Position numbers and translations under genes: made by a program. Positions 8,965 through 53,722 of a stretch of 64,000 nucleotides of DNA are shown piece after piece (position 1 is the stretch's first letter; every line of letters starts with the position of its first letter). Where the stretch lies: positions 992,001 through 1,056,000 of the forward strand of contig CM035350.1 of NCBI GenBank assembly GCA_020137815.1, in the 5' to 3' direction. Under the pieces are notes generated by a model. It was not told the DNA's origin, searched no databases, and saw only the letters and a list, made by a program, of their open reading frames with translations. This stretch comes from Hormiphora californensis. Taxonomy: Eukaryota > Animalia > Ctenophora.

Positions 8965-11296
8965 TCAGCGGGGTTGTGATGTAGGTTCGGGGCTCATTAG
9001 TTCCTGTTTTAGCTGCTGCTGAATGTGAGCCAAGGGCACCTCAACATTATCTTGAAATGAACTGAAAAGAGTTGCTATTAGTAGAGTAGATGGTAGAACA
9101 AGGGTCCTTTTTCCTAGACGATATTATAGTAGCCGTAGAGCAAAGCTCGAAATGAAAATGAACACAGGCTGTTACAAGCATAACTTACTGGAGGTTTGAG
9201 GGGTGTATGGAGGTTTTGAGGTTCCGCAAACTCTCGGTAATAACTGATAGACCCCCTGGGGTGGCATTATCAGATACCTTCTGAACCTGGAACTAGTAGA
9301 GCCGTCAATTCTGTCACCAGCTTTATCGACTTTTCGTGCTCCAACCTAAGGAGGGATATTGTTAAAAACAAAGTGAACTTAAATCGAGCACGGTGATTAA
9401 AGGACTCAAGGGGACAGGTAAGGGGTCTGAATCAGACCGTCTGATCAAGTCAAATTTTTGCACTGTCATTGTTTGCTGCAGCAGCAGTGCGATCAGCAGC
9501 TTATAACGGCTGCGCGCGTCAATATTGCGCGCTGTTTCGCGCCAAGTTCCTATCCCTCATGTCAGGGCGTGTTACATACTTGAGAAGTTTGTTTGCGTCA
9601 CGGACTAGCGTGTTGGCGAGACCCTCTGAATTCGATTTGATTTCTACCGCCGCTATTGTCTCTGAACCAAGATGCTGGGAGGGAGGAGATTGATAACAAC
9701 GGAAATGAAAGTGTGTGATAGAGGTCCGAACAATTAAACACTGGCCTATTCCCCCCAATTATAGGTAATACTTAGGTACAATAGTCCATTTCTTACCGTT
9801 TTGCAGTGCTCCTGAAGTTCCTTGACAGTCTGGTGCAGGTACTTGTTTAGTTTATCAAACTCTAACACAGTCTTAGCATACATTAACTGTATCCCACTAT
9901 CTATCCCCTCTTTGAAAGACGTCTTCCTCTCTACAGCTGAGTTCAGGTTTCTAATTTTAGAGAGGAGATCTCTCTTTATATGTAGTAGCTGGGTCATTTT
10001 AACAATACACCGCAGAAATACCACTGGGTACCCTCCTAACTGTCCTGAGGGGAGAGGGTATAAATAATGTTTTATGACATTTACAATCAGGAGGGGGGAA
10101 TTTATTGTTTTACCTTGACATGGGTAGGGGGACGAAGAACCAGGCCTGGAATCTTTGGCTTGTTTAGTTATCATTTCCAGAACAGTATTACTCTACAGGG
10201 GGAGGGGGTTAGAGGCAGCCACTGGCGTGTTGAGAGGGTGTGAGAGGAGTATGTACAGGGACAAGTAACTGAGCAAATAACGAATAGTGTAAGAAAATTA
10301 GATTTCAATTGAAATCTAATTTGTTTTGCTTCATTTAGCCATCCCACTAACTATTTTACTCGTATTACCTGCTGTGTGTACTGAAAACCATAACTAAACC
10401 AAGAACATAAGAACCATTGTTCTAGGTATTGTAGCTGGGGTTACCTGAACATTGTAGTCGGGTACAGTGTGGGTGCCCAGACCAGGTCTGTCGAACCGTA
10501 TACGGTAGCTATGTGTTAGTGGATCTACTGCCTCAATCTCTCCAACAAATAATCCGTCTGATATGTGTGCTGAAAAAGGGATTGATCAACACACAGGGAT
10601 AATGAGTAACTAACTGATAGTAACTAACTAATTGTAATCAATACCTGTTACGCTAGTTCCGATAGCCAGGAGACCAGGTATTTTATCTGGTATGTCCTCG
10701 AAGTGCTCCAAGTTATGTTGTGAAGCTTCCTGTAACTGTAGTAACCGGATCTTGTTTCGTTTCTGTTCCAGAGTTGCCCTCTCCTCCTGTAGAATGGTGT
10801 TACTAATTAGTCCTCAGTGTGAGGGTATTAGGGGGAGGGAGACTTTCTGGCTCACCTGATCTACCAAACCTCCTCAGAGCGCTCATTTAATGAAATATAA
10901 TGCGGTGTGAGCCACGCAATGACTCACTTGAAAGAACTTTAGAACTACATCGTCGAGGTTTCCCCAGGCTTCTTCTCACGACACTCCATTGCAGCTGTGT
11001 GAGCTTTGTCCCGGGTTGTAGGTCGGGGAAGGTTGCTCGTAGACATGATACAAACTCATTGTCTTGCAAGAAGATGGTTTTGTCGATATCAGAGTAAAAC
11101 CATTCGTAGATACACCATTTTCGGGCTTTCTCTACTTTCAGGAAGTTCTTTATCTTTATCCCTGCACTCTGTATAAAATAATATGGAGTTCATCAAGTTC
11201 ATCAAGGATTAATGTTGTGTAATAATGTGTAAAAATTGAAAAGATCGACTAAAATTTTGCAAGTCTCACCTTCGTTCCATTATATGTGTCGCCCAT
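8965..11296 (-). CDS. LIN9: LIN-9 (MuvB/DREAM complex subunit; DIRP and Tudor-like domains), multi-exon, with two apparent +1 frameshifts
   Basis: Exons translate to KWCIYEWFYSDIDKTIF..DNEFVSCL, SLGKPRRCSS, EERATLEQKRNKIRLLQ, DGLFVGEIEAVD..YRIRFDRPGLGTHTVPDY, GGYPVVFL..IKRDLLSKIRNLNS..YAKTVLEFDKLNK and SFQDNVEVPLAHIQ, all characteristic of LIN9. ATG 11296, TGA 8965-8967. Confidence 0.93.
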
Positions 11297-11776
11297 CAGG
11301 AAACATCAAAACATTAGCATAGAAAACCTTGTTGGGTGGGTGTGTTGAATCTTTAAACTCAGATTGGACTAAAAATCTCATTCAAAACACCAATTTTAGA
11401 CGAAAATTGGCCCTTTTCTTTGAATTTTGCTCTTTTCCTCTTCACGATCCGAAGGAAAAGTGCGTCCGCGTCGTCCACATGGCAGAGCCACCCCTGATTC
11501 TTTTCAACTGTTCGCCCCCTATTTACATGACAGGGCCCACGAGACGGAATTTTTCCAGGGGGGGGGGGGTGAGGAGCACCGTAATTTTCGATGTGCGTGA
11601 CGACGAGCAGCGGCAGGGGGTTTGGGGGCCACAGGCCCCCAATAGGGTCCAGGGGCAGGGTGAAACCCCTGGAGAGAGGCTCACTCGCCCCCATCCCAAA
11701 TTAAATGTAGCGCGCGAGACAACACGAGAGAGAGACAGTGCAGGACGATAGAAGAAAGAGGGGATATCATACCCAA

Positions 11777-14700
11777 GGTCAAAGTGGGAAAATTTCTTAG
11801 AGATAAGGAGGGTCAAAATGGGAAAGTTTCTTAGAGATAAGGAGGGTCAAAGTGGGAAAGTGTTTTAAAAATAAGGAGGGTCAAAGTGGGAAAGTTTCTT
11901 AGAGATAAGGAAGTTCAAAGTGGGAAAGTTTCTTAGAGATAAGGAGGGTCAAAGTGGGAAAGTTTCTTAGAGATAAGGAGGGTCAAAGTGGGAAAGTTTC
12001 TTAGAGATAAGGAGGGTCAAAGTGGGAAAGTTTCTTAGAGATAAGGAGGGTCAAAGTGGGAAAGTTTCTTAGAGATAAGGAGGGTCAAAGTGGGAAAGTT
12101 TCTTAGAGATAAGGAGGGTTAAAGTGGGAAAGTTTCTTAGAGATAAGGAGGGTCAAAGTGGGAAAATTTCTTAGAGATAAGGAGGGTCAAAGTGGGAAAG
12201 TGTCTTAGAGATAAGGAGGGTCAAAGTGGGAAAGTTTCTTAGAGATAAGGAGGGTCAAAGTGGGAAAGTGTCTTAGAGATAAGGAGGGTCAAAGTGGGAA
12301 AGTTTCTTAGAGATAAGGAGGGTCAAAGTGGGAAAGTTTCTTAGAGATAAGGAGGGTTAAAGTGGGAAAGTTTCTTAGAGATAAGGAGGGTCAAAGTGGG
12401 AAAGTTTCTTAGAGATAAGGAGGGTCAAAGTGGGAAAGTGTCTTAGAGATAAGGAGGGTCAAAGTGGGAAAGTTTCTTAGAGATAAGGAGGGTCAAAGTG
12501 GGAAAGTTTCTTAGAGATAAGGAGGGTTAAAGTGGGAAAGTTTCTTAGAGATAAGGAGGGTCAAAGTGGGAAAGTTTCTTAGAGATAAGGAGGGTCAAAG
12601 TGGGAAAGTTTCTTAGAGATAAGGAGGGTCAAAGCCCCCCGGTCAAAGTGGGAAAGTTTCTTAGAGATAAGGAGGGTCAAAGTGGGAAAGTTTCTTAGAG
12701 ATAAGGAGGGTCAAAGTGGGAAAGTTTCTTAGAGATAAGGAGGGTCAAAGTGGGAAAGTTTCTTAGAGATAAGGAGGGTCAAAGTGGGAAAGTTTCTTAG
12801 AGATAAGGAGGGTCAAAGTGGGAAAGTTTCTTAGAGATAAGGAGGGTCAAAGTGGGAAAGTTTCTTAGAGATAAGGAGGGTCAAAGTGGGAAAGTTTCTT
12901 AGAGATAAGGAGGGTTCAAGTGGGAAAGTTTCTTAGAGATAAGGAGGGTCAAAGTGGGAAAGTTTCTTAGAGATAAGGAGGGTAAAAGTGGGAAAGTGTC
13001 TTAGAGATAAGGAGGGTCAAAGTGGGAAAGTTTCTTAGAGATAAGGATGGTCAAAGTGGGAAAGTTTCTTAGAGATAAGGAGGGTTAAAGTGGGAAAGTT
13101 TCTTAGAGATAAGGAGGGTCAAAGTGGGAAAGTTTCTTAGAGATAAGGAGGGTCAAAGTGGGAAAGTTTCTTAGAGATAAGGAGGGTCAAAGTGGGAAAG
13201 TTTCTTAGAGATAAGGAGGGTCAAAGTGGGAAAGTTTCTTAGAGATAAGGAGGGTCAAAGTGGGAAAGTTTCTTAGAGATTAGAAGGTCAAAGTGGGACA
13301 AGTTTCTTAGAGATAAGGAGGTTCAAAGTGGGAAAGTTTCTTAGAGATAAGGAGGTCAAAGTGGGAAAGTTTCTTAGAGATAAGGAGGGTCAAAGTGGGA
13401 AAGTTTCTTAGAGATAAGGAGGGTCAAAGTGGGAAAGTTTCTTAGAGATAAGGAGGGTCAAAGTGGGAAAGTTTCTTAGAGATAAGGAGGGTCAAAGTGG
13501 GAAAGTTTCTTAGAGATAAGGAGGTTCAAAGTGGGAAAGTTTCTTAGAGATAAGGAGGGTCAAAGTGGGAAAGTTTCTTAGAGATAAGGAGGGTCAAAGT
13601 GGGAAAGTTTCTTAGAGATAAGGAGGGTCAAAGTGGGAAAGTTTCTTAGAGATAAGGAGGTCAAAGTGGGAAAGTTTCTTAGAGATAAGGAGGTCAAAGT
13701 GGGAAAGTTTCTTAGAGATTAGAAGGTCAAAGTGGGACAAGTTTCTTAGAGATAAGGAGGTTCAAAGTGGGAAAGTTTCTTAGAGATAAGGAGGGTCAAA
13801 GTGGGAAAGTTTCTTAGAGATAAGGAGGGTCAAAGTGGGAAAGTTTCTTAGAGATAAGGAGGGTCAAAGTGGGAAAGTTTCTTAGAGATAAGGAGGGTCA
13901 AAGTGGGAAAGTTTCTTAGAGATAAGGAGGGTCAAAGTGGGAAAGTTTCTTAGAGATAAGGAGGGTCAAAGTGGGAAAGTTTCTTAGAGATAAGGAGGGT
14001 CAAAGTGGGAAAGTTTCTTAGAGATAAGGAGGGTCAAAAGTGGGAAAGTTTCTTAGAGATAAGGAGGGTCAAAGTGGGAAAGTTTCTTAGAGATAAGGAG
14101 GTTCAAAGTGGGAAAGTTTCTTAGAGATAAGAAGGGTCAAAGTGGGAAAGTTTCTTAGAGATAAGGAGGGTCAAAGTGGAAAGTTTCTTAGAGATAAGGA
14201 GGTTCAAAGTGGGACAGTTTCTTAAAGATAAGGAGGGTAAAAGTGGGAAAGTTTCTTAGAGATTAGGAAGGTCAAAGTGGGAAAGTTTCTTAGAGATAAG
14301 GAGGTTCAAAGTGGGAACGTTTCTTAGAGATAAGGAGGGTCAAAGTGGGAAAGTTTCTTAGAGATAAGGAGGGTCAAAGTGGGAAAGTTTCTTAGAGATT
14401 AGAAGGTCAAAGTGGGACAAGTTTCTTAGAGATAAGGAGGTTCAAAGTGGGAACTTTTCTTAGAGATAAGGAGGGTCAAAGTGGGAAAGTTTCTTAGAGA
14501 TAAGGAGGGTCAAAGTGGGAAAGTTTCTTAGAGATAAGGAGGTTCAAAGTGGGACAGTTTCTTAGAGATAAGGAGGGTAAAAGTGGGAAAGTTTCTTAGA
14601 GATTAGAAGGTCAAAGTGGGACAAGTTTCTTAGAGATAAGGAGGTTCAAAGTGGGAACGTTTCTTAGAGATAAGGAGGGTCAAAGTGGGAAAGTTTCTTA

Positions 14701-15005
14701 GAGATAAGGAGGGTCAAAGTGGGAAAGTTTCTTAGAGATTAGAAGGTCAAAGTGGGACAAGTTTCTTAGAGATAAGGAGGTTCAAAGTGGGAACGTTTCT
14801 TAGAGATAAGGAGGGTCAAAGTGGGAAAGTTTCTTAGAGATAAGGAGGGTCAAAGTGGGAAAGTTTCTTAGAGATAAGGAGGGTCAAAGTGGGAAAGTTT
14901 CTTAGAGATAAGGAGGGTCAAAGTGGGAAAGTTTCTTAGAGATAAGGAGGGTCAAATTGGGAAAGTTTCTTAGAGATAAGGAGGGTCAAAGTGGGAACGT
15001 TTCTT
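11777..15005 (+). repeat. Satellite array, 34-bp unit (ggtcaaagtgggaaagtttcttagagataaggag), roughly 95 copies
   Basis: Directly visible head-to-tail repeats with few variants and no unique spacers; one interruption (cccccc) at about 12635. Confidence 0.98.
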
Positions 15006-16332: not shown

Positions 16333-18252
16333 TTTAAGTTTAAGTTTAAGTTTAAGTTTAATCACTATTTATCACAAAGTCAATATTAAAATATTAAAAC
16401 CTTGTCCCGCTCTTACACCAAACATATTTAATATAAATAGATATAAAAAATAAGCTACAAGGCTGATGTGAAAGCACCAGCGGTTACCTAAAGCGGGTTA
16501 AGCTAGTTCACGATACAATGAGGCAGATAACATCAGCATAAACTGCACAATTAAATAACTGAGATACAACGGCTTTTGAAAAAGTGCACAAACAAACCAA
16601 CACAGCCCGCAGACAAACAAAACGAACAAACAAACAACCAAACAAATAAATAAGCAAACAAACAAACAAATAAGTTAACACTAAACAGACAGGCAAACAA
16701 GAAAGTTAACAAACAAGCATACATACAAACAAACAAACAAAAGAACAGTCAAATAAATAAATAAACAAACAGGTACAAGTGAACATCAAAATAATAACAA
16801 CAGACATAATATCAGATGAGACACACACGGTTAATAAGTAATAATAGAGTTCAGCATCACGAATAGTTTATTGTCCATACATGGCATAGTTTTTTATCGG
16901 TAAAAACGTTAAAACGGTATGTATGGATCTTCTTTCTTCTTTCGTTTCTCCCTTTAGACTCAGTCAATCTGGAACCTCATCTACTCAGACTCTACACAAA
17001 CTCGTAGGCCAAGATACACTTAAAACAGAAAAAACACACTAAAAATTCTCACTACTCTGGCTTGGATGATCCCTCTACTAAGTCTCATGAAGATGTAGGA
17101 AGGACAGGGAAATGGTAAATGTAGCAGGTTAAGGAGGGGGGAGCAGCAGGTTAGGGAGGAAGCAGCAGTGCAGGTTAAGGAGGATGTAGCAGGTTATGGA
17201 GGGAGCAGCAAGTTGAGGAGGATGTAGCAGGTTTCAGGAGGGAGCAGCAGTGCAGGTTAAGGAGGGAGCAGCAGTGCAGGTTAAGGAGGGAGCAGCAGGT
17301 TAAGGAGGGAGCAGGAGGTTTCAGGAGGGAGCAGCAGGTTAAGGAGGGAGTAGCAGGTTAAGGAGGGAGTAGCAGGTTAAGGAGGAAGCAGCAGTGCAGG
17401 TTAAGGAGGGAGCAGCAGTGCAGGTTAAGGAGGGAGCAGCAGGTTAAGGAGGATGTAGCAGGTTAAGGAGGATGTAGCAGGTTAAGGAGGGAGCAGCAGG
17501 TTAAGGAGGAATTAGCAGGTTTCAGGAGGGAGCAGCAGTGCAGGTTAAGGAGGGAGCAGCAGGTTAGGGAGGGAGCAGCAGGTTAGGGAGGGGGGAGCAG
17601 CAGGTTAAGGAGGGAGCAGCAGTGCAGGTTGAGGAGGGAGCAGCAGGTTTCAGGAGGGAGCAGCAGTGCAGGTTAATGAGGATGTACCAGGTTAAGGAGG
17701 ATGTACCAGGTTAAGGAGGATGTACCAGGTTAGGCCTTAGGGAGGAAGCAGCAGGCTGCAGGTTAGGGAGGAAGCAACAGGTCAGTGATGCAGCAGCAGG
17801 TTCAAAGGGAAAGGAGAAGGGTCAGGGGAAATCAGCAGTCGTAGGCCATCCTAAACAAACAGGTCTTCAAAGATTTCTTGAAAGAAGACAGTGTTTCTGA
17901 GTTGCGTATCTGCTCAGGAAGGCGGTTCCACATTTTTGGAGCGGCTACACTGAAAGCTCTCTCTGTTGCTTTGTAGTTGCATGTACTGTGCACCTCTTCT
18001 AGTCTCGTTGTATCAGTATCCACTCGCAGACATTTAGCCTTTGGTTTACGCTTTTGAACCATGTCTGCCATGTATCCGGGTGTGTCGTTGTTAAGTGACT
18101 TATAGACTAGCAGACATATCTTGTACTCGATTCTGTGTCTAATGGGTAGAAAGTGGCACTTCTTACGGAGATCAGTAACACCTCGTCTACTTCGTTGGCC
18201 AAATATAAAACGAGTTGCAGAATTTTGTAGCTTCTGCAAGCGCCTCACATCA
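16333..18252 (-). mobile_element. 5'-truncated L2/CR1-group LINE with long repetitive 3' region and (TTAAAC)n tail
   Basis: ORF 17832-18248 is a typical L2/Crack ORF2 C-terminus (LQKLQNSATRFI..HFLPIRHRIEYK..RAFSVAAPKMWNRLP..IR....LSSFKKSLKTCLF). Tandem tail at 16333-16361; cgtg duplicated at both ends. Confidence 0.8.
17120..17790 (+). repeat. Degenerate minisatellite (gcaggttaaggagggagca, about 19-24 bp) inside the LINE 3' region
   Basis: Direct observation of imperfect tandem units. Confidence 0.9.
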
Positions 18253-20748
18253 CGTGGGCACGACCGCGCACCAATAGTGGTCCTGACTACGTTTCAAACT
18301 CCTCACTCTTCGCGAGGAGCCTTAGCTTGGCAAACGCCGCTGGCCCCCGATAACAGCGCGGGATAAGGCAGCGCTTTTCAACGAGGAGTCAGGAGCCAGG
18401 TCAAAATTCAAAAATCAAAATGCAAAAATTTAAAAATCTTGCGTTTTTGAAAAATTAAATAAACAAAATTTCGAATAATATAGCGCGCGCGCGTAAGAAC
18501 GCGCAAAAACATAACGCGCGACAAAAATTGCTAGTCTTTGATCTGGCGCGGTATATTTGAACCCTTGAAATCAAACAAATAGTCAAAACAGATTGAGTTA
18601 GAAACATGTAATCTTGAAACAAAGTTGGTTTTATGTTCTATTTACAGAAGGATCCTGGATCATTGCAATAGTTGCCATGCTACGCAGTACGCAGTCTATC
18701 CATTCGGCCCCTTCGGGCTTGCGTAAGTTGCCTAGCTAGACTGTGTTTCGCTTTACAAATGTAAAGGAGAGTTAGAACATAGCAACGCGTAAGCTCACAC
18801 CAGGCCTTCGGTGTGAGAGCCGACAGACTGGGAACATGTCAATGCAATAGGTACTGAATTAGACTGAATGAACAAAAACCACAGCCTATACCCTCTATTC
18901 AGGCTGTGACAGACCCCATTTTGATTCTCAGAGCGCTCAGATCGTGTCGGCTCCGCCGGGCTGTAACTTAATTTTACATGAAAATGCAATTCCTTGCTGC
19001 AAATTAAGATTCATAGGGCCACTGTGGAAGAGGGACTGCAGGGAACGCTTTAGCTCTGGTCATTTGATCCGTTTTCCTGTAATACGATAAGCTCGTTTGG
19101 AACCACCAGGTGTGAACTACAGAAACTCTCAGTCACAATGTTCCCTGGCCTTAGCAGTAGTTTGTATCAATTTTCAAGCTTGAAATACTCTGACACTCTT
19201 CAGCTCTTCTGCTCAAACATGGTACGGGTAGTTCTTAATTTAAAAAGAAGCTGCTCTCTACATGAATCATCCAGTGAAATCAAAAAGGAATGCTAATTTA
19301 AGAAATTAGATTTTAGTACTTAGACTTTAACAATTCATATTACGTCGCGTCCAGAAATCAAACTCAAAAACAATTAGCTGATTAAGAATCAGAAGTAGCG
19401 ACTGTGACTGTGAGGGAGGACGAGACTTGGTGAAGATGTCATTAAATGAACTAAAAATTTAGCTCATCTTGCTGCTTGCTACCATGTACCTACCTACCAA
19501 AATATTTGTTTTCTGGGTGATCAGGCCGATATGTTATACTTATAGACGGTGCCAATATGCAGTAGGATAATTTACTTGCAGTACCACTGAATATGGTTAC
19601 AAAACTAGGGTGTGATATTACATGCCAGGATTCCATTTTTAACTTCACTAACTATAACTCAATTAGCATGCTGGTTCTACCGCTGTCTGCGTGTAACTGT
19701 TCGTCTGTGCATGTGCTGCTTATCTCCTGGCATTCTTGTTGCTGGGGTGTCAAATTCAATAATTATCCGGAACATTCTTTTAGCATGATTCCTATATGCG
19801 TGATCAGAATTCACATATTCAAGTCCATATTCGAAGGGTCCGGTAATCTCGCTTATTTTGGGACTTGGGTTGATATTTCCCGTATTTGCTTGGCCAGATG
19901 TTTCATCATATAATTCTGTGGTCAATAAACTTTAATATCATTGAACTTTAGCGAATATTAACTCTTCAGCGATTAGTTTAGATGATTCTTTTGCTTCTGT
20001 TAGTCTGATCTCTGCTACTCAACTATTCGTCCCTCAACATACCCCTCTCGTATTATTATGGTGGTCTCTCGTATTATTATGGTGGTCAGTGGTCACGGCT
20101 GCAAATCATAGTGTCGAATATAGGTAATCTTTCTTCGTCCAATGAAATTGAATGGGTCGTTCTCTTTTTATTCTTCATCTCTCTCTGGCCCAGCCCTTTC
20201 CCCTATCTCTCTCTCTCTCTCTCTCTCTTGCCAATCTTATTATACTCCTTCATTCAGTAGGTGTCCGGGGCTCTCAAACATTCTTAGCAGTCAGCTCCAA
20301 TTTGTTAATTGGCATTTCGTGCTTGCGAGGAGGAGGACAACTCAGCACTGGGCGCTCCTATTTGAATGTACCTGTGAAGTTGCACCAGCTGTTCTCTTCA
20401 CTAGTATTAGTTCTCTCGGCTGTATGGATCAATTTGTATAGCGGTATCTAGGAGGAGAGGGCAGGAAGACCCTTTATTCAAGGAACTGGGCGTGGAAAAG
20501 AAAGGGGGTCATTATCATTGTGGCACGTAGCTAAAAATAAACCTTCATTATTTCTTTCCATGTTGACCTTCTATATTTTTTTATGACAGGTTGAGAAGTA
20601 AAGGAACTATGGGAGGGGACAATGGGAGATTGAGAAATAGATTGCACCAGTAGAGAAATTATGATAATGTGAGGGGAGGGGAGTTGCACCTGCTGTCCCC
20701 ACACCCACTGCAGCAGCTGCCGCTCTTACATGATGCTGTCTTCGTGGA

Positions 20749-21108: not shown

Positions 21109-21513
21109 CCTCTTTCTCTTTGACTTTCTCTCCTAACAATGTGAATATCCATTGTGTACCCTCATGAGTCATGGTCCCATTCCCCGGATGTACCCCTGCT
21201 TTGTTTCTCCAGATGAACTGCAGATTGTTACACTGAGATGCTGCATAGCACCATTCTGTTATGTTCCTCACACAATTGTAGTATTGGAGAGTTGAACCCT
21301 TCCGCTATTTGTCTCAGTGTCTGTCACAGTCATAGTATGATCCTAAACCTCAGAATCACATGGTCCTATCGACAACCTTCCAGAATATGATCATACTTCC
21401 AGAATACTTCCAGAATCTCTTGTCTCATATAACACCTGACAAAGAATCTCATAGTACTTTCTGAGAAAGTACCCTTTCTCCCTGCTGAGATTGTGTTCCT
21501 GGTATGGGCTGTC

Positions 21514-21823
21514 TGTTAGTGATCCCTGTACACAGATCAAACAAGATTCTTCGGGTTTTCAAACAATGTCCACTCACAGCAAGACACATCGCTTATATCT
21601 CAATATTCCACACGTGGCCCCTCCCGCGTGAGCGGGGTGAAACCATAATAAGACTAATAGGAGGGAGGCCGCGAGATTACACTCTCCCTGGTACCGACAT
21701 CTCGATAGGGGTGAAACCCTAGTAAGACCTAATAGGAGGGAGGCCTCGAGATTACACTCTCCCTGGTACCGACATCTCAAATATCAGTGGATATAAGTAT
21801 GATCTAATTGCACAATCCCAATA
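21514..21823 (-). repeat. 3' LTR of Gypsy element
   Basis: Matches 28432-28741 by eye; contains an internal duplicated motif taataggagggaggcc.cgagattacactctccctggtaccgacatctc. Confidence 0.95.
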
Positions 21824-22128
21824 TCTCAGTCCCTCCAAATATATAAAATAGAGTCAATAAAAGTGTTTCCCAATATCTCAGTCCCTCCAAATATATAAAA
21901 TAAAGTCCATAAAAGTGTTTCCCAATATCTCAGTCCGTCTGAACGTGAGGTAGTCATAGCGTGACAAAGGTCACGTACTATGTTGGCGGAGAGATCAGAT
22001 GTCGGTGAAGAGATCCGATGTCGGTGAAGAGGTCCGATGTCGATGTAGATCAGGTTAGGATATCCGATGACCCCGAGTCCAATAACATGGAGTCTAAAGT
22101 TGCTTGAGTAGAGGTGATTAAGCGGGAC

Positions 22129-22136
22129 TATATAAG
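22129..22136 (+). promoter_or_regulatory. Candidate TATA box (TATATAAG) for the antisense ORF of the Gypsy element
   Basis: TATATAAG lies about 39 bp before the ATG at 22168 (context caaaATG) and is preceded by 19-bp tandem motifs gatgtcggtgaagag(a/g)tcc at about 21990-22045. Confidence 0.5.
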
Positions 22137-22167
22137 ATGTTCAGGGATTCCGATACATCACCCCAAA

Positions 22168-22821
22168 ATGTATACTTCTGAATCTGACAGCGGCTTGTCC
22201 GATACATCCCAGCAGAGGAGCAGGCCCATACGGAGCAGAGGACGTGTCTTGAGTTCGTCGTCATCCTCTTCTACATCATCTACTTCCTCCTCATCATCTG
22301 CTTCCTCCTCATCATCGGCGTCACAAAGTCCACCGCCGCCCCCGTCTACCCCGCACCCGGATGTACTGCAGAGGTTAGAGGATCCCTGTGAGCCGACATC
22401 TACCCCCGTCTATGACCGAGTGATAGGAGGCGTCCCTACTGTACTGCAAGAAGATCTACAACAAGCCCTCCGACCAATGGTGGAGGTAGCCAATCTGGAG
22501 TTGGTAATGGGGCTCCGTGGTTCTTCTACAATCGAGGACATACTGAAGAGGATAGACGAGCATGCCCAGCGGGTAGAGGTCTTGGTTCGCCAGGGTAGAA
22601 GGCTGGCTTTGGAGAGGGCCCGACTGTACAATTTAGGGGTCGAGAGATTGTACCATGTGGAAGTCCAACGTGTCCGGTTTGCCGTATACCGTAGGCTGTC
22701 CGAGTGGCACCGGGCAGTGCGAACTGTTGTCCAAGGAGGAGAGAGGTCCAAGAAAACAGTGTTAGAGGAGTTGATTAACGCTAATAACCTCAGTTATTGT
22801 GTGTTGTGTTTACGGTTTTAG
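22168..22821 (+). CDS. Antisense accessory ORF (217 aa) inside the Gypsy element between pol and the 3' LTR; unknown function
   Basis: Open frame MYTSESDSG...SYCVLCLRF*. Poly-Ser/Pro N-terminus, amphipathic helical core and terminal CxxC. The stop lies 12 bp from the pol stop, and it does not overlap pol, so it is not a shadow ORF. Confidence 0.7.
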   Translation: MYTSESDSGLSDTSQQRSRPIRSRGRVLSSSSSSSTSSTSSSSSASSSSSASQSPPPPPSTPHPDVLQRLEDPCEPTSTPVYDRVIGGVPTVLQEDLQQALRPMVEVANLELVMGLRGSSTIEDILKRIDEHAQRVEVLVRQGRRLALERARLYNLGVERLYHVEVQRVRFAVYRRLSEWHRAVRTVVQGGERSKKTVLEELINANNLSYCVLCLRF

Positions 22822-22833
22822 AGTGACAGCGTA

Positions 22834-25800
22834 TTAATTTATTCCATATCGTGATATCTGCTTTTTACTGCGTACGGGCCGGGTTGGCTCATTAGTTTGG
22901 AGATTGTCACTCGGTTGCAATAACGTATTGGTTGTCGAGGGGGAAGGGTCTTCCGTGGCAGGGTCCGTTGATTCCTGGTTTTGAGACTTGTTCCTTGGAG
23001 TGAATTTCTTCATCTTGCTGATGTTAGTGACATGCTCTCCCTTTTCCGTTGCGATTATGTAGAGGTGTTGGTCACATTTCTTGATGATTTCGTAAGGTCC
23101 AGCCCATCTTTTGGAAAACTTCATCTGCGGGTTGGGCACCAGGAGGAGACAATGCTCTCCTTTTTCAAAATTTTGGCCTGGTTTTTGGTTGCTAGCATTT
23201 TCCATAGCTAGGAAATCAAGAGATGCGTTGTTACGGGCCCGTTGTAATATATCTCGATATGACCGGTATAGAGTGTATGCTCGGGGGTCTCGGAGGTGCT
23301 CGGGTTGTGCGAAGGGTTCTTGCTCTCCTTCTATCTCGATCTGGAGGGGTGCCCTTAGTTCTCTTCCATGTGCTAAGATGTTCGGTGTGAATCCAGTATG
23401 CTTAGATTTGATACCATTGAGGGCGAAGCATATGATGGGTAGATACAGGTCCCAGTCACGGAGTTGGTTCTCCGATAGCATGAGACGAAGAGCATTGTTG
23501 ATCTTTTTGTTAGCCCTTTCTACTTTAGCAGTCGAGCCACATGTGTAAGGGGTTCCGTGTGTTCCCTTGATTTTGAAATAGTCCAGTATCTCGTCGAATA
23601 TGGTGGAGGTGAAGGCACCGTCGTTGTCGCTGACGATTTCTTGCATAAATCCGTGCTTCAGGCACCAGCTCTGTGTAATTAACCGGATTGTTTCCTCGCT
23701 AGTTTTCGTCTTACATGGAACCGCCACAATGTATCCGCTGAAAACGTCTGTCATGGTGAGAATATAACGATTTTTCCTGGGTGTTATGGCGTCTCTCTCC
23801 GGTATGATATGGTCGATAGCAACTGCTTGTCCGAAGTGATTTGCAACGACATGTTTCAACGGGGATCTGCAATATTTGGATGGTTGTTTCGCCAGTCCAC
23901 ATTTCAGGCAGCTTTTCACATATAGTTCCACCTCGTCCGCCAATTTGGGCCAGTAGTATCGTCTCCGGATTATATCTGTGGTGTTTCGAATACCAGGGTG
24001 GATAGTAATGAGTGAATCATGGTGCCTTTTCAGTACTGACTCTCTCAGCTCTTCCGGCACGAGGATGAGGTAGTGGTTAGGTTCATGATGCGAAGGATTA
24101 ATCCAATATTTACACATGACCCCGTTTACTACTGTAAGTGAAGAGAATTGCTTCCAGTAACTTAGGAGGTCTTTAGGCATCCTTAGTTTCTGGGTGTTTT
24201 CGGGTTTCTTTCCTTCAATCATCCACTTCCTTACTTCAGAGAGAACAACGTCCTTGGCTTGTGTCTTGCGAATATTTTCGATATTCAGCTGAGGAGGTAG
24301 TGTTAATGTAGCGTCAATAGAGTTCACTCGGACTACTGTGTGTTCTTTAGGTGTGGCATTTTCCAGATGTTGGCCTGTCTCTTCCATGTTGTCGACGATG
24401 GGTGTGTTAGATTGGTTTACCGGTCTGTCGGTTTGACAGGATCTTTCTGCCGTTGTCAACTTCATTCCATAGCGACTTAAAAAATCACTGACAGAGTTCG
24501 ATTTCCCTGAGGTATGCTGGATGTTGAATCTGTATTTGGCGAGCCGCTGAAGTTGTCGGAGTTGGTGAGCGGTGGTGTTGCCATCTCTGAATATTGTCTG
24601 GAACTGTAACAGGGACAGGCAATCTGTTATCACAGTGAATGAGGTTCCCTGTAAATAAATTCTCCAATGTTCAATCGCCGCAAGCATGGCCTCGAATTCT
24701 AGGCGTGTTTGGGACCATGTCCTCTTCCTTTGGGGGGTGCGTTTAGAGAAGTACGCTATAGTTCGTCTTTCCCCCTTCACCACTTGTGATAACTCCGCTC
24801 CCAGCCCATGCTGAGATCCGTCGACAGTAACGTGGAAACTCTCATCCTTGTCTTCTACATCAGGAATGGCTAATGTTATTCCCCGGCAAATTTCTTTCTT
24901 GATAGAATCCAGGCTTTCTGCACAAATGGGGGACCATATTGGTCTTTTCCCTGGTCTTCCCTTATCGATGAGTTGATAGATAGGTTTGGCGAGAGCGGCA
25001 AAGTTCGGTACAAACTTCCTGTTGTAAGACAAGAACCCCATGAGGCTTTCCACCTCTTTCCTAGTGGTGGGTACTTGTAAGTTCCTGACCGCTTTGATTC
25101 TTTCATCCGTAACGCGTATTCCGTTTTCCGAAATGGATAGTCCAACGAAGGTTACCTCTTTTTTCAGGAAGTGGCATTTGCTAGGTGTTAGTTTAAGTCC
25201 AGCTTCTCTGAATTTCCTGAAGATCGTGTCTAGTTTTTCTAGATGTTCGGGGACTGTGTGGCTACCACATAATAGGTCGTCTAGAAAGTAGATGAGCTGC
25301 GATACGGGAATTTCTCTTGTGAGTTGGTCCATCATTCGACTGAAGGAGCTTGAGCTCGAGAGGTGTCCCATTACCATCCGTTTGAACACATATCGTCTGT
25401 TGTTAACGGAAAACGCGGTGATGGGTTTAGCTGCGTTGTTATACTCTACTTGGTAGAATGATTTGGATAAGTCGAACGTTGAGTAGTATTTCATACCTCC
25501 AATCGTGTCTGTGACATGGTTGATGTTGGGTAGTTGGTAGCCGTCTGGTAAACATTCTCCATTTACGGCCCGGAAGTCTGCAACAAATCTGTATCCTCTC
25601 CCATTGGGTTTCTCTACCAGAAATACGGGGCTGTTCCAGTATGACCTCTCGTTGCATTCCTCTATAACACCAGCGTCCAGCAATCCCGAGATGGTGTCCT
25701 CCATAGCATCTCGAAGTTTATATGCTATGGGTCGGGCAGGAATCCACCTTGGTTGATGATTGTGTTTCAACTTGATCTCTGCTTCGTAAAATTTGCACTT

Positions 25801-26745
25801 TCCGAGGTCGGTTTCAGAGGTGCTGAAGCATTCTCTGTTGTTCCATATGATAGATTCGAGCTGGGTTTTTTCGTTGTTGCTGATGCTCAATCCCTTTATT
25901 TTGAGTGCTGTCATGAGTTCCTCTTTGTTCCATCCCTTCTCTGAGTCCGGGTTGGGGTTTTCAACGTCAGGTGATGTCTTTTTTGCCCCTCTCAGATGAC
26001 CGTCAATGTCGATGGGTGTAGCTAAACCGAGGACGGTGTTTTTATATAAGGTTATGTCTCTGGGTGAAGGGTTTATTACGGCTACCGGAACTCGCTGTTG
26101 GAGTGAGTTAGTTAGGTTAGGAGACGTTGTCACATTGAATATTGAGGCTCCAATAAATGTGTTTGTCTTGTTCATGGTTTTATGGTATGGGTCTACAAAG
26201 GCTGGTGTGGTCCCGTGTTTGTGAAGGTTGTCTTGTATTCCGGTCCTTCCTGCGAGGAACATGGCTGTATTAGGAGGGATTGTGGTTGTCCTCACCAGTT
26301 TGACTTTTGCCCGCCGCTTACTGTTGTCCGCCAGTTTATCCAGTGATCTAAACGATGTTTCCCCTGATTTAGACGAAACCTTCCCGGTACCCATGTGGAG
26401 AGTAATGTCATGTTTCATCATGAAGTCTGCGCCGAGCAGGATGTCAACGTCCATACTGGGAATCACGATACAGGAGTGAGCTTTGGTTAAGCCGGCAATC
26501 CTCAGTGTGATGGTTATAGCACCACTAGTGGTGATGTTGTTCTTTGTGAAAGATGAAAGTCGGAGATTGGATTGTTCCACGCGGTCCTGATATCCAATCT
26601 TTGTCACAAGGTTCGTGCTAATAAGGGTAACTTGGCTTCCTGTATCTAGTAAGAATGTTGCTGGAGTATTTTCCACTAGTCCTGTTGCTGTAACGCTGTT
26701 GTTTATTGTTGGCCGTTTGCGTCCCCGGCCCCCAGGAAGTTTAAA
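22834..26745 (-). CDS. pol: Gypsy Pol polyprotein (aspartic protease, RT, RNase H, integrase), expressed by -1 frameshift from gag
   Basis: LLDTGS protease; RT motifs WNSPVFLVEK, FDLSKSFYQV and YFLDDLL; RNase H TVDGS..IAYFSK..TDC; integrase HH..H..CLKC, IDHI, SDND, VERAN and WAGPY. No chromodomain seen. Confidence 0.96.
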   Translation of the reverse strand, partial: FKLPGGRGRKRPTINNSVTATGLVENTPATFLLDTGSQVTLISTNLVTKIGYQDRVEQSNLRLSSFTKNNITTSGAITITLRIAGLTKAHSCIVIPSMDVDILLGADFMMKHDITLHMGTGKVSSKSGETSFRSLDKLADNSKRRAKVKLVRTTTIPPNTAMFLAGRTGIQDNLHKHGTTPAFVDPYHKTMNKTNTFIGASIFNVTTSPNLTNSLQQRVPVAVINPSPRDITLYKNTVLGLATPIDIDGHLRGAKKTSPDVENPNPDSEKGWNKEELMTALKIKGLSISNNEKTQLESIIWNNRECFSTSETDLGKCKFYEAEIKLKHNHQPRWIPARPIAYKLRDAMEDTISGLLDAGVIEECNERSYWNSPVFLVEKPNGRGYRFVADFRAVNGECLPDGYQLPNINHVTDTIGGMKYYSTFDLSKSFYQVEYNNAAKPITAFSVNNRRYVFKRMVMGHLSSSSSFSRMMDQLTREIPVSQLIYFLDDLLCGSHTVPEHLEKLDTIFRKFREAGLKLTPSKCHFLKKEVTFVGLSISENGIRVTDERIKAVRNLQVPTTRKEVESLMGFLSYNRKFVPNFAALAKPIYQLIDKGRPGKRPIWSPICAESLDSIKKEICRGITLAIPDVEDKDESFHVTVDGSQHGLGAELSQVVKGERRTIAYFSKRTPQRKRTWSQTRLEFEAMLAAIEHWRIYLQGTSFTVITDCLSLLQFQTIFRDGNTTAHQLRQLQRLAKYRFNIQHTSGKSNSVSDFLSRYGMKLTTAERSCQTDRPVNQSNTPIVDNMEETGQHLENATPKEHTVVRVNSIDATLTLPPQLNIENIRKTQAKDVVLSEVRKWMIEGKKPENTQKLRMPKDLLSYWKQFSSLTVVNGVMCKYWINPSHHEPNHYLILVPEELRESVLKRHHDSLITIHPGIRNTTDIIRRRYYWPKLADEVELYVKSCLKCGLAKQPSKYCRSPLKHVVANHFGQAVAIDHIIPERDAITPRKNRYILTMTDVFSGYIVAVPCKTKTSEETIRLITQSWCLKHGFMQEIVSDNDGAFTSTIFDEILDYFKIKGTHGTPYTCGSTAKVERANKKINNALRLMLSENQLRDWDLYLPIICFALNGIKSKHTGFTPNILAHGRELRAPLQIEIEGEQEPFAQPEHLRDPRAYTLYRSYRDILQRARNNASLDFLAMENASNQKPGQNFEKGEHCLLLVPNPQMKFSKRWAGPYEIIKKCDQHLYIIATEKGEHVTNISKMKKFTPRNKSQNQESTDPATEDPSPSTTNTLLQPSDNLQTNEPTRPVRSKKQISRYGIN
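26700..26745 (-). other. -1 programmed ribosomal frameshift signal (U UUA AAC plus downstream stem-loop)
   Basis: Gag codons TGT TTA AAC place the heptamer in correct X XXY YYZ phase at 26745-26739. The -1 frame reads FKLPGGRGRKRP, which is the pol ORF. Stem GGCCG/CGGCC follows. Confidence 0.85.
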
Positions 26746-28415
26746 CAACTTTGTAGTTTAGGGCAGTTCCTAACAAAATGATCGTCTTGCTTGCACAGAT
26801 GACATGTCCTGTCGTATGTCCTTCTGTCGTTCCTTCTGTAGCTCTGGCGGTTGTTTGGGGCACTGCTTCTCCTGTTGTGGTTATTTCTTTGGTGTTGTGG
26901 ATCGCTTGTTCCTGTTTCCACAGCATTCACTGAAGCGAGTAGATCGTCCTGTCGTTGGATTTCATCTTTGTCGTCGTCATGGAAAATAGTTTCAGCTGTG
27001 ACTGCAATTTGTACTGCTTCCTCAAAACTATTGGTAGAGTCGCGAATGATTTCGGCTTTGATGGAGTTTTTCCTTACTCCTCCAAGAAGAACTGAGTAGC
27101 ATAGTTGGTCTCCCTCACTTCCGGTAAGTGGTGAGCCCCATATTTTGCATGCCATAGCTCGGATGCGGCAAGAGAAATCATCTACACTTTCCCCCTTGAG
27201 CTGCTGAAGTTTAATTATTTTGCCTCTCAAAGCCCGAGATTCGGCTTCTGTGTAAATCCCTGTTTGTAAGAGGGGTATAAATAATTCCGGTGTACTCTTC
27301 TGTTTTGGGGTGAGTTTATCCGCAACGAGTTGTAGTTTTCTGGCCGTAGTATTGTCTACTCGGTTCAATAGTTGCCACAGTGCTGTTTCTCCAGTGAGAC
27401 CAGACATCTTCGTATACCTCAGATATTTATTACACCACTCTGAGAAGTCCTGGTGAGGCTCGTATTGATCGGGAGGATAGATGGGGATTGAGAATCTCGG
27501 TGTCGGGTTCACGTGTCCGGCAGATTGATGAGAGCTAGTAGCAGTGTCGTGTGCAGTATCAGCAGTCCGCTGATTTTGCAAGGAAGGGTTATACTCAGCA
27601 GGTCGCTGAATAGGGGCGGTGATGGTGGATGCATTATCAGCAGGTCGCTGATTTTGCAAAGACGGATTATATTCAGCAGGTCGCTGAATAGGGGCGGTGA
27701 TGGTAGATGCATTATCAGCAGGTCGCTGATATTGCACAGAAGGGTTATATTCAGCAGGTCGCTGAACAGGGGCGGTGATGGTTATTGCATCATCAGCAGG
27801 TCGCTGATTTTGCAAAGAAGGATTATATTCAGCAGGTCGCTGAATGGGGGCGGTAATGGTAGATGCATTATCAGCAGGTCGCTGATATTGCACAGAAGGA
27901 TTATACTCAGCAGGTCGCTGAATTATAGGGGCGGTGATGGTGGATGCATTATCAGCAGGTCGCTGATTTTGCAAAGAAGGATTATTCTCAGCAGGTCGCT
28001 GAATGGGTGATGCGGTGATGGTAGATGCATTCTCAGCAGTCCGCTGAGAGTGCTGCAAAGAGGAATTGTATTCAGCAGGTTGTTGAATGGTATCATTGGT
28101 AATAAACGTGTCGCTGTTTATACCAGGTTGCTGAGAGTTAGGAAAAGATGGCAGGTTGGCAGCTGTATCGGAGATGATGTCCTCGTTGGTTTCGTGGTTG
28201 CTGCTGGTAGACACAGTGAGGGATTCAATAGCTTCTTCTATTTTCGTTCGTAGTATCTCTCCTTCATTCTCTGCGTCTAGGATCTTTGCTTGCAAGGCTT
28301 CTCGTTTGTTTTTCTGGTTCTTGGTCCTCGAGTTTGTATTGCTGAGCTTTTCCTCAAGTTGTCCCTTAGTTGCAGCGTTGTTGGCTAGTTTCTCGTAGAG
28401 GAGACGTAGGTCCAT
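26703..28415 (-). CDS. gag: Gypsy Gag with N-terminal coiled coil, internal 26-aa tandem repeats and CCHC zinc knuckle
   Basis: ATG 28415 (MDLRLLYEK); capsid-like LQQLKGESVDDFSCRIRAMA; knuckle CHLCKQDDHFVRNC. Confidence 0.92.
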   Translation of the reverse strand: MDLRLLYEKLANNAATKGQLEEKLSNTNSRTKNQKNKREALQAKILDAENEGEILRTKIEEAIESLTVSTSSNHETNEDIISDTAANLPSFPNSQQPGINSDTFITNDTIQQPAEYNSSLQHSQRTAENASTITASPIQRPAENNPSLQNQRPADNASTITAPIIQRPAEYNPSVQYQRPADNASTITAPIQRPAEYNPSLQNQRPADDAITITAPVQRPAEYNPSVQYQRPADNASTITAPIQRPAEYNPSLQNQRPADNASTITAPIQRPAEYNPSLQNQRTADTAHDTATSSHQSAGHVNPTPRFSIPIYPPDQYEPHQDFSEWCNKYLRYTKMSGLTGETALWQLLNRVDNTTARKLQLVADKLTPKQKSTPELFIPLLQTGIYTEAESRALRGKIIKLQQLKGESVDDFSCRIRAMACKIWGSPLTGSEGDQLCYSVLLGGVRKNSIKAEIIRDSTNSFEEAVQIAVTAETIFHDDDKDEIQRQDDLLASVNAVETGTSDPQHQRNNHNRRSSAPNNRQSYRRNDRRTYDRTCHLCKQDDHFVRNCPKLQSCLNFLGAGDANGQQ

Positions 28416-28431
28416 AATCGAAGTCACCAGT

Positions 28432-28741
28432 TGTTAGTGATCCCTGTACACAGATCAAACAAGATTCTTCGGGTTTTCAAACAATGTCCACTCACAGCAA
28501 GACACATCGCTTATATCTCAATATTCCACACGTGGCCCCTCCCGCGTGAGCGGGGTGAAACCATAATAAGACTAATAGGAGGGAGGCCGCGAGATTACAC
28601 TCTCCCTGGTACCGACATCTCGATAGGGGTGAAACCCTAGTAAGACCTAATAGGAGGGAGGCCTCGAGATTACACTCTCCCTGGTACCGACATCTCAAAT
28701 ATCAGTGGATATAAGTATGATCTAATTGCACAATCCCAATA
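28432..28741 (-). repeat. 5' LTR of Gypsy element
   Basis: Matches 21514-21823; followed on the minus strand by the PBS. Confidence 0.95.
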
Positions 28742-29017
28742 TGTCAAATAACCTTGGTATTGCATTATTGCTATAGCGCGTTAATATCCAAGCAGATTCT
28801 TTTACCGAAAATGTAATTGCTTCCAATGCCTCCAGGACATGATGCCTCTATATTACTGGGATCTCTATAACGTATTATGGGTCACCCCCAACCACTAAAT
28901 GAGGGCATGGCTATTAATTGCATGTTTTTGTTTCCCTAACTGTTTCCTAATTGGAGCACTGAGTAAATACACACCTGTGTAATGTGTAAATCCACACAAT
29001 AAAAAGTTGTGTTTTCT

Positions 29018-30008
29018 CAGAGCAATGAATGTGTTTCCTGAGCTGAGAGCAATGAGAGTGTTTCCTGAGCTGAGAGCAATGAGAGTGTTTCCTGAGACTG
29101 AGAGCAATGGGAGTGTTTCCTGAGCTGAGAGCAATGAGAGTGTTTCCTGAGCTGAGAGCAATGAGAGTGTTTCCTGAGCTGAGAGCAATGAGAGTGTTTC
29201 CTGAGCTGAGAGCAATGAGAGTGTTTCCTGAGCTGAGAGCAATGAGAGTGTTTCCTGAGCTGAGAGCAATGAGAGTGTTTCCTGAGCTGAGAGCAATGAG
29301 AGTGTTTCCTGAGCTGAGAGCAATGAGAGTGTTTCCTGAGCTGAGAGCAATGAGAGTGTTTCCTGAGCTGAGAGCAATGAGAGTGTTTCCTGAGCTGAGA
29401 GCAATGAGAGTGTTTCCTGAGCTGAGAGCAATGAGAGTGTTTCCTGAGCTGAGAGCAATGAGAGTGTTTCCTGAACTGAGAGCAATGAGAGTGTTTCCTG
29501 AACTGAGAGCAATGAGAGTGTTTCCTGAGCTGAGAGCAATGAGAGTGTTTCCTGAACTGAGAGCAATGAGAGTGTTTCCTGAGCTGAGAGCAATGAGAGT
29601 GTTTCCTGAACTGAGAGCAATGAGAGTGTTTCCTGAGCTGAGAGCAATGAGAGTGTTTCCTGAGCTGAGAGCAATGAGAGTGTTTCCTGAGCTGAGAGCA
29701 ATGAGAGTGTTTCCTGAGCTGAGAGCAATGAGAGTGTTTCCTGAACTGAGAGCAATGAGAGTGTTTCCTGAGCTGAGAGCAATGAGAGTGTTTCCTGAGC
29801 TGAGAGCAATGAGAGTGTTTCCTGAGCTGAGAGCAATGAGAGTGTTTCCTGAGCTGAGAGCAATGAGAGTGTTTCCTGAGCTGAGAGCAATGAGAGTGTT
29901 TCCTGAGCTGAGAGCAATGAGAGTGTTTCCTGAGCTGAGAGGAATGAGAGTGTTAAGTGTTTCCTGAACTGAGAGCAATGAGAGTGTTTGCTGAGCTGAG
30001 AGCAATGA
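29018..30008 (+). repeat. Minisatellite, 27-bp unit (ctgagagcaatgagagtgtttcctgag), about 36 copies
   Basis: Direct observation; it generates the spurious periodic ORFs in the track. Confidence 0.97.
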
Positions 30009-31508
30009 GTTGCGTACGTGTTTTAGGAAACCTCAACACTAACAACAAGCTGCATAGATGTATACAGCTTCACTCATTATAGCTCTTCTTTCCATTCATT
30101 TCTGTACTGCAGCAGCAGCTGGAGTAAATCTGAGATCTGGATCATCAGATATACAAGTACTACCCCCTACCGCGGCACTCATCGTATGTATTGGTCATTT
30201 TCCAAGCCGCTACAAACTATCGCGCTAATCTACCGCTAATGAGATAAGCACTTAGAGGAGAGCAGCCAAATTTTGTATCGTTGAGTCGCTCAGAATAGTA
30301 TGAAGTATTGATTATTGAAGTAATCGATAGATAGAATTTATCTTATTCTCCAAGTTCTCTTTTCCTTCTTCCGGGTTCCCTCGTGATACCTTGTTGAATA
30401 AGGATGCCATGACATGTTTGTTATACACTGCTAGTCATTGTTACAATGTACTCAATGTACTACCACGAATCTCCATTCTCGTCTCAGAGGACTCTCCCTC
30501 TTTTCTCTCTCCCTTACACGCCCTATAGCTGCCCCTAGCAACACGCAAGCCCCCTCCCCCTTTGCTTTGTGTGTTTGTATAATCATAATTACTGTCTAGC
30601 ACATGCAGGATCCTTCTCCAATGTATTTATCACCCTGTGCTTGTGTGTGTGACGTGTGTGTCCCTGCACATTTACTAATGTTTGTAGTTCAGAGCCCTCG
30701 GTAGCGCGGGTAGGATACAAATAGAATTCAGATTCTTCATATTAATTCTGAATAATTTTGCCTGTTTTTTTTCTCTGTTTGCCCGGCCCCTCTGTGAGAT
30801 TATATGTGTTTACCCCTTTTCAAGTGATATGTTTATATGACGCGGTGTTTACACAAGACAAACACATCAGAGTTGTATCACAGTTGAATGTTGATCAGAG
30901 TTGTATCACAGTTGAATCTTGATCAGTCCATCTTTACTGTTGATCAGCCCACCTTTTATTGCTTGTTTACTGTGTGTGTTACTTGAGTTCACTCATTATA
31001 ATAGTGTGCAGCACACATTTGCTTTGGTCATCTCAACACTCGAAGTTACCAGCTCTCTCTACATCTCTCTTTCTCTACCTTTTTCTCTCTCACTTCTCTC
31101 TCACTTCTTCACTCTACTTTATTTCTCTTGAGAAATAGATGCTTGTCACTTGCTTGTTATGTGCGTTACACCGAGTACAGAAGCAGTTAGACACGGGACT
31201 GTAGAGTTTACTGTCGGCTATTATACGATCAGAATTTTAACGTCGTCGCTATGGTGATGAGATTCGATAGAACAGGTACGCAGATGCTTTCTAGGAGGAG
31301 ATATGAGAGACAGAGAGATAACTTATGTACCTAGTTAAACAATTAGATAAAGACCTGAGATCTAGTTTGTCTTATGGGAGAGGAAGTTGAATAGCAATGC
31401 TTACAAATAGATCCCTGTCGAGACAAGTATTTATTCGATCGAAAAAATTAATTTGTAATTGACGCATTTGCTGTAACTTGTACAGCTGACATACAATCTC
31501 ACCACCTC

Positions 31509-49369: not shown

Positions 49370-49462
49370 TGGTAGAGGGTAATTGCACCAAGCGCACACA
49401 CTAATCTCAAGGAATCAGTGTCACTAGTATTCAACATTACTTAGTATCTTCTTGTTGTTGTC

Positions 49463-52400: not shown

Positions 52401-53060
52401 TACCATCGAGGCAGTAAATGTTGCGGAGGGGGAAGAAAGTGCTGCAGAAGAAATTATTGAAGATGTTGTAGGAGAAGAAGAAGAATTAGAACAAGAGGAA
52501 GAAAAATTGGAAGAAAAATTGGAAGAAGAAGTTGAAGAAGTAGAAGAAGAAGAAGAAGTAGAAGAAGAAGTAGAAGAAGCAGTAGAAGAAGAGGAAGAGG
52601 AAGAAGAAGAGGAAGTAGAAGAAGAAGAAGAAGAAGAGGAAGCAGAAGTAGAAGAAGTAGTAGAAGAAGAAGAAGAAGCAGAAGTAGAAGAAGTAGAAGA
52701 GGAAGAAGTAGAAGAAGTAGTAGAAGAGGAAGCAGAAGTAGAAGAAGTAGTAGAAGAAGAAGAAGAAGCAGAAGTAGAAGAAGTAGAAGAGGAAGAAGTA
52801 GAAGAAGTAGAAGAGGAAGAAGTTAAAGAAGTAGAAGAGAAGAGCAGAAGAAGAAGAAGAAGAAGAGAGAAGAGAGAAGAAGAAGAAGAAGAAGAAGAAG
52901 AGAAAAGAAGAAGAAGAAGAACAGAAGAAGAGAAGAAGAAGAAGAAGAGAAAGAGAGCAGAAGTATAAGAAGTAGAAGAAGAAGAGGAAGAAGAGGAAGA
53001 AGTAGAAGAGGAAGCAGAAGTAGAAGAAGTAGAAGAAGAAGTAGAAGAAGTAGAAGAAGT

Positions 53061-53099
<39 letters not shown>

Positions 53100-53685: not shown

Positions 53686-53722
<37 letters not shown>

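Follow-up and report, generated by a model that had tools for sequence, protein, structure and literature searches.

The 64,000-nt stretch of Hormiphora californensis DNA analysed here (the window) carries an intact minus-strand Ty3/Gypsy element, and an open reading frame (ORF) of 217 aa lying antisense to its pol gene (22168-22821, + strand) is a real, conserved and unnamed accessory gene, whose function we infer. A first-pass annotation of the window had proposed a retained accessory gene at this position, and the proposal was borne out by purifying selection in the gene's own frame, the same antisense layout in a second species, and distant full-length homologues. Our leading reading, which we hold tentatively, is that the product is a separately transcribed nuclear activator or de-silencer of the element's transcription.

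The element contains gag, pol and both long terminal repeats (LTRs). On the minus strand, gag (28415-26703, 570 aa) shows internal repeats and a CCHC zinc knuckle, and pol (22834-26757), open from stop to stop over 1307 aa, has a protease-like start, read from the sequence, and RT, RNase H and integrase in the Ty3/Gypsy order by Pfam. A TTTAAAC slippery heptamer in the gag/pol overlap (26739-26745, minus) is a candidate -1 frameshift site, and the primer-binding site (28416-28429, minus), beginning with TGG, lies 2 nt off the LTR and is directly followed by the gag ATG. The 3' LTR (21514-21823, minus), which holds two 74-bp internal units, and the 5' LTR (28432-28741, minus) are 310 bp each with 0/310 mismatches, and the 4-bp target duplication TGTC flanks both sides (21510-21513 and 28742-28745), in agreement with the earlier description of the element as intact and young. 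When the LTRs were read instead as 315 bp with TG..CA ends, 1 mismatch and no target duplication were obtained; boundaries set by the 4-bp duplication make the LTR begin with TA, not TG, on the sense strand. The polypurine tract (PPT, 21817-21936, minus) adjoins the LTR, a position that suggests the plus-strand primer role, and the PPT/LTR-junction unit is present in three copies with 52-bp spacing (21817, 21869 and 21921). The + strand of this triplicate carries TATATAAAA and AATAAA in two units. Within gag, about six imperfect repeats of 19-20 residues (27528-28010) also yield an open antisense frame of 160 aa. The insertion is probably still polymorphic, because one contig of run X1 spans the left flank and the LTR, and a contig of run X5, from the same species as X1, tracks the flank as far as 21513, after which come 37 different letters, like an empty site.

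Elsewhere in the window, Pfam matches to animal genes were found in 5 of the 8 ORFs scanned, namely an innexin-like exon (49445-49960), a papain-family protease with a cathepsin match (50567-51862), an acetyltransferase with bromodomain (58533-59477), a LIN9 C-terminal region (9746-10192) and a BACK domain (36346-36768). Tandem repeats with unit lengths of 34 bp and 27 bp form long arrays at 11641-15000 and 29016-30009. Long ORFs at 52231-54411 encode an extremely Glu-rich repeat protein containing His, with a signal-peptide-like start at 52231-52968, and a 153-aa minus-strand frame at 17832-18293 has no Pfam match and presumably resembles a LINE reverse transcriptase, in the C-terminal part of that enzyme.

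The accessory gene sits between pol and the 3' LTR without overlapping pol and converges on it, the pol stop lying at 22834 on the minus strand and the two stops 12 nt apart; re-checking of the coordinates confirmed this arrangement as first described. When the 1010-nt interval between pol and the LTR was simulated with Markov models, ATG-initiated ORFs of at least 217 aa arose in 0/2000 and 2/2000 simulations, and the probability of a chance origin is 0.001 or less. That the ORF is a real gene is, in our judgement, very likely. We rejected the alternative of a sense-strand ORF in this interval, as open stretches on the minus strand reach at most 82-127 codons, without an excess of synonymous differences. 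Upstream of the gene, a TATA-like box, TATATAAG (22129-22136, +), stands 39 nt before an ATG in the context CAAAATG, both as annotated before; as a caveat, TATA-like 8-mers number 32 in the window with both strands counted. The annotated upstream array of 19-bp motifs holds as three units (21988-22044, +), putatively an enhancer, and is degenerate beyond them. The TATA-like box and the repeat array together make it probable that the gene has its own promoter. Each LTR likewise contains two copies of the array core GATGTCGG, on the sense strand of the element, and all 7 occurrences of the motif in the window lie inside the element (expected 1.2), in a count that is inflated by duplications, as the motif was chosen post hoc and 4/7 copies stem from the LTR duplication. 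In a local-alignment control, the sharing of GATGTCGG between array and LTR was not significant (p 0.21). No AATAAA or ATTAAA was found after the ORF on the + strand within 22822-24500, and the match of run X12, putatively an RNA run, to the ORF is limited to the poly-Ser stretch and uninformative on expression.

A relative of the element in a second species (organism B) is about 85-92% identical, and organism B shares the antisense layout because its contigs bridge the LTR and the ORF (21543-22437) as well as the ORF and pol (22409-23388 in run X6 and 22603-24500 in run X8). In its main contigs the Ser tract is shorter by 18 nt, in frame, and two one-base gaps compensate each other; one low-depth contig carries a 7-nt deletion. 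When the window ORF was compared with that of the second species, dN/dS was 0.29-0.38 in the ORF frame and not about 1, with 20.3 synonymous and 17.7 non-synonymous differences and 0 stops, as uncorrected counts based on 38 ORF differences among the 40 listed of 206, from rows picked by support and pooled over several contigs with the gap pair omitted. The selection test gave P values of 0.0003-0.0035 under transition weights of 1 and 3.9, while the remaining five frames of the region showed dN/dS of 0.55-1.87 with P at least 0.06. Within species, contigs of run X5 cover 22028-22421 and 22408-23711 and are gap-free inside the ORF, and the three ORF differences listed are all non-synonymous. 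Run X10 lacked cover over pol and the rest of 22841-24500 and run X11 lacked any, such holes in contig sets being uninformative.

A full HMMER search for homologues of the accessory protein returned three matches, P0155 (82% identity), P0156 and P0157 (about 29-32%, E 2.7e-4), of which P0156 is a fragment flanked by unrelated sequence. A profile search added P0188, P0189 and P0190, giving 6 matches among 7990 scored, and the full-length homologues P0157, P0188 and P0190 show identities of about 29, 24 and 25%. The N-terminus is of low complexity in all four full-length members and is followed by a PPP..PHP motif, a helical core bearing a conserved F171-R176-W180 motif (22678-22707, +, from the family alignment) and, at the end, an L202-N206-Y210 pattern; of the alignment columns, 25 are invariant in 4/4 members, none of them a cysteine. 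A single-sequence word search with the ORF core matched 0/456 candidates, the ORF as query matched 0/190 stretches in metagenome contigs and 0/10 in viral contigs, and P0157 likewise matched 0/10 in viral contigs. With P0190 as query, 2/11 stretches were relatives, with no locus.

In the window protein, residues 29-64 (22252-22359, +), the region in which organism B has its in-frame deletion, are rich first in Ser and then in Pro up to the conserved PHP motif at their end, and residues 91-213 (22438-22806, +) are predicted to fold into a basic four-helix bundle. AlphaFold2, run with an 8-row alignment, placed four long helices with a pLDDT of 72 and a pTM of 0.70, in line with the helical core proposed earlier. 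The best fold match had Z 9.5 and rmsd 5.4 over 128 aligned residues, a range that the tool deems common for bundles, and 0 matches at E 0.001 or better were found among PDB and viral structures. All fold matches are generic helical bundles and no nucleic-acid-binding domain was recognised in the modelled protein; the sole match of the PDB sequence search was a designed coiled coil, and Pfam gave nothing above cut-off, and no TRP28 (PF04195), for the window protein and 6 homologues. Structure prediction, suggested in the first-pass annotation as a check, produced a modelled helical core but assigned it to no family. The terminal CVLC noted there is present in the window protein but not conserved, C214 being Tyr in P0155 and organism B, and a metal site at CVLC was ruled out on the same ground, as the end is conserved neither among homologues nor in organism B.

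The core is basic in 7/7 family members (pI 8.7-10.9), and the highest 19-residue hydropathy is 0.64-1.22 in 7/7, so that a segment of transmembrane strength, or a signal peptide, is lacking, as expected from the earlier remark that the protein does not resemble env. On the basis of the model, the accessory protein is predicted to represent a small, soluble, previously unnamed family. These values bear on whether it could be a particle or transport factor in the env slot, whether bound to the capsid, bringing the integration complex into the nucleus or promoting spread from cell to cell. The gene does share the slot between pol and the 3' LTR with the envelope-like sense ORF of locus L004, and a small non-env spread factor, sORF2, is described for Drosophila in the available text of bioRxiv 10.1101/2025.03.14.642691, but sORF2 is a transmembrane protein whereas 0/7 members here have such a segment, and we regard a role of this kind as quite improbable.

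The basic core, with its conserved aromatic/basic motif, would also suit a helper that acts on RNA, either binding genomic RNA and exporting or protecting it, like Rev and CERV, or blunting small-RNA silencing. The N-terminus is Arg/Ser-rich and then Ser-rich in 2/4 full-length members, as might be expected of such a helper, and Ser-rich alone in a third, but P0190 has no Ser-rich tail. CERV, from the C. elegans Ty3/Gypsy element Cer1, provides an example of a Gypsy-encoded export factor in an animal, and it matches the window protein in being a new accessory product, other than env, of a Gypsy element in an animal (PMC10309623, from the part of the paper available). According to the same text, the CERV mRNA is a spliced sense transcript and the protein has G and M domains and a loop of essential cysteines, which sets it apart from the window gene with its unspliced-looking ORF, candidate promoter of its own, predicted helical bundle and non-invariant cysteines. 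We consider an RNA-level role possible but somewhat unlikely.

The orientation of the gene was compared among close relatives of pol, where 6 of 45 metagenome loci belong to the close clade and reach the pol end. No antisense ATG-ORF longer than 57 aa was found in these six, with 91-1511 nt past pol visible, while 4/6 have a longer sense ORF after pol, and that of locus L011 is a homologue of the accessory protein. This homologue (L011:2915-3595, pol strand) starts 378 nt past the pol stop, was found by a profile built without it (E 8e-4 among 5693 peptides), and is identical to P0190 at 99/101 positions. It is preceded by short repeats and by a TATAAA placed 79 nt ahead of its ATG. GATGTCGG is absent from L011; among 20 comparisons, one gave a weak hint, in that the region upstream of the L011 gene matches the + strand of the window LTR over 13 bp (p 0.007). 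An 80-nt block directly after pol is common to L001 and L011, looks like a PPT plus LTR start, and folds no better than shuffles. Judging from this block, the 3' LTR may contain the L011 gene; whether inside the LTR or internal, the gene is on the pol strand. A DNA pattern built from L011 found no matching locus.

Several other features were observed at these loci. In L004, whose pol is closely related, a truncated third ORF of 335 aa in sense orientation (4932-5936) reads as envelope-like: its N-terminus is hydrophobic, and a basic site precedes a hydrophobic stretch. It matched nothing in Pfam or PDB. L008 (6170-6488) and L009 (6464-6969) also have third ORFs in sense orientation, which contain proline-rich repeats and are truncated by the contig ends, and the family profile did not match either of these partial ORFs; an inverted repeat (6060-6168) lies just upstream of that in L008. 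In L001, an LTR-end/PBS-like block is present in two copies upstream of gag (1-41 and 682-722).

The idea of a dedicated antisense gene fits the window element and organism B but does not cover the whole family, since the homologue in L011 is in sense orientation. Because the L011 homologue lies on the pol strand, the conserved trait is, as judged from these sequences, the protein and not the antisense orientation, and double-stranded RNA is weakened as the reason for the gene. The protein itself matters, since selection acts at the amino-acid level and both orientations are found. The presence of a TATA box and a repeat array before the gene in both families suggests a self-contained cassette. 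These results also bear on self-limiting control, in which the antisense transcript would pair with genomic RNA, or the protein would repress the element, as HBZ does in HTLV-1, to cap copy number. Any + strand mRNA made here would be fully complementary to genomic RNA and, with no poly(A) signal nearby, may run into pol; the antisense orientation is kept in two species, and the option is raised in the available sections of the review PMC7264820. With a homologue on the pol strand, and with selection on amino acids that double-stranded RNA alone would not need, control of this type appears unlikely.

The pol of the element has 72 close relatives with 41-68% identity in the RT region, the next ones having 34% or less, and the pol alignment as query matched 0/33 in viral contigs and 0/237 in prokaryote genomes. 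Accessory protein clusters number 6 against these 72 close pol clusters. Indirect evidence suggests that P0158 and P0188 travel with pols P0053 and P0054: the longest contig is 6869 bp for both P0158 and P0053 and 726,963 bp for both P0188 and P0054, an equality that meant the same contig in 2/2 checkable cases (L009 with P0044, L006 with P0003) but can mislead, as two different pols both give 6969 bp. The two pols (80% identity) and the two accessory proteins (67%) are sister pairs. The pols of the three gene-bearing lineages are 40-48% identical to each other, and the three fall in one clade with a local support of 0.87 (FastTree, 88 rows, with L011 represented by 114 residues only). In L002, a purine tract lies about 75 nt past pol, and the 91 nt available leave no room for an accessory gene.

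Pieces of the ORF core (22419-22804) run into unrelated sequence in contigs of both species, some of them frameshifted. The junctions listed are at least 22702, 22803 and 22804 in run X1, at least 22456, 22527, 22544, 22587, 22600, 22664 and 22732 in organism B, and at least 22419, 22558, 22777 and 22803 in run X10, where frameshifting gaps occur; among those listed, one lies in pol (X6, 23385). In run X8, a given ORF-core difference was found on up to 9 contigs, compared with 1 for the listed pol differences. Possible origins of the pieces are retro-copying of a plentiful ORF mRNA, retention by the host as small-RNA templates, and non-autonomous elements derived from this one. Patchy detection among pol relatives and the decayed, frameshifted pieces would be consistent with a passenger, that is, a captured or chance ORF without a role for the element. 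This is already largely refuted by the chance probability given above, the frame-specific purifying selection and homologues tied to pols only 40-48% identical, and we give it very little credence. A broader picture, which we think rather unlikely, is a new family of self-promoted, orientation-flipping, counter-silencing regulator cassettes in a large marine-animal Gypsy clade, whose hosts keep its fragments as small-RNA templates; such templates would explain why ORF-core pieces occur in many unrelated contigs of both species.

In the mechanism that we tentatively prefer, activation or de-silencing of the element, a separate mRNA would start near 22158 from the gene's own TATA promoter, and the predicted soluble, basic four-helix-bundle protein would enter the nucleus. 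There it would trans-activate or de-silence the LTR, possibly through the short repeats that the array upstream of the gene has in common with the LTR. With a promoter of its own, the helper could be produced even when the LTR is inactive, and the cassette would work in either orientation. As far as the model goes, a protein that is soluble, basic and produced without the LTR would suit a trans-acting role in regulation, and support for the preferred mechanism may also be drawn from the selection, the homologues, L011 with its own TATAAA and repeats, the basic cores, and the precedent of Grande gene23 described below. Against it stand, first, the generic bundle, the non-significant sharing of GATGTCGG and the missing poly(A) hexamer after the ORF, and second, the absence of GATGTCGG from L011, the 6 versus 72 clusters, the lack of room in L002 and the three non-synonymous differences in X5. 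Taken together, we rank activation or de-silencing first, followed by the RNA helper, self-limiting control, the particle factor and the passenger.

Foamy-virus Tas is a trans-activator with an internal promoter. The VANC proteins of Arabidopsis VANDAL DNA transposons are anti-silencing proteins (PMC5735166 and PMC10398659, available parts). The likeness of the window gene to VANC and Tas is a functional analogy only, that of a trans-acting accessory factor with repeat motifs in non-coding DNA or a promoter of its own; the element class and host are different, no sequence or fold link was found, and binding and activation by the window protein are conjectural.

Antisense accessory ORFs at this position were said in the first-pass annotation to be known from plant Gypsy elements, and this is correct: antisense ORFs between pol and the 3' LTR (aORF-3R) are described in the available portions of PMC7264820 and PMC11963269 for maize Grande (gene23), rice RIRE2, Silene Retand (TRP28) and Botrytis Boty. 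The window gene resembles this class in position, antisense orientation, cross-species conservation and nearby tandem repeats, and differs from it in its animal host and in having a sense-oriented homologue in another family. Grande gene23 has an upstream promoter of its own and encodes a nuclear protein (PMC7264820, same portions), where the window gene has a candidate promoter. Compared with Retand as described there, the interval between pol and LTR is 1.0 kb here and 2.9-6.6 kb in Retand, and there is no match to TRP28 here. Among animals, the ORF3s of bdelloid rotifer Juno and Vesta elements encode a DEDDy exonuclease and a GDSL esterase and are exchanged between families (PMC5408684, available text). 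These are likewise variable third ORFs of an animal Gypsy group that are exchanged between families, but they are recognisable enzymes, with antisense coding ORFs unmentioned in that text, whereas the window protein belongs to no recognisable family. A survey of metazoan env genes includes ctenophores, and the word 'antisense' appears nowhere in its main text (PMC13524379). In a literature search that mostly left aside subscription papers and supplements (that of PMC13524379 may list relatives), an antisense protein-coding ORF in a ctenophore element was not found.

The role of antisense extra ORFs in plants and fungi is called an open question in the available part of PMC7264820. The gene described here extends this class to an animal, with a small soluble protein family carried by a very young and compact element. 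Its sense-oriented homologue separates the protein's job from an antisense-RNA effect, which the plant examples cannot do. If activation or de-silencing is true, the accessory protein would give animals a rare equivalent of the anti-silencing factors of transposons.
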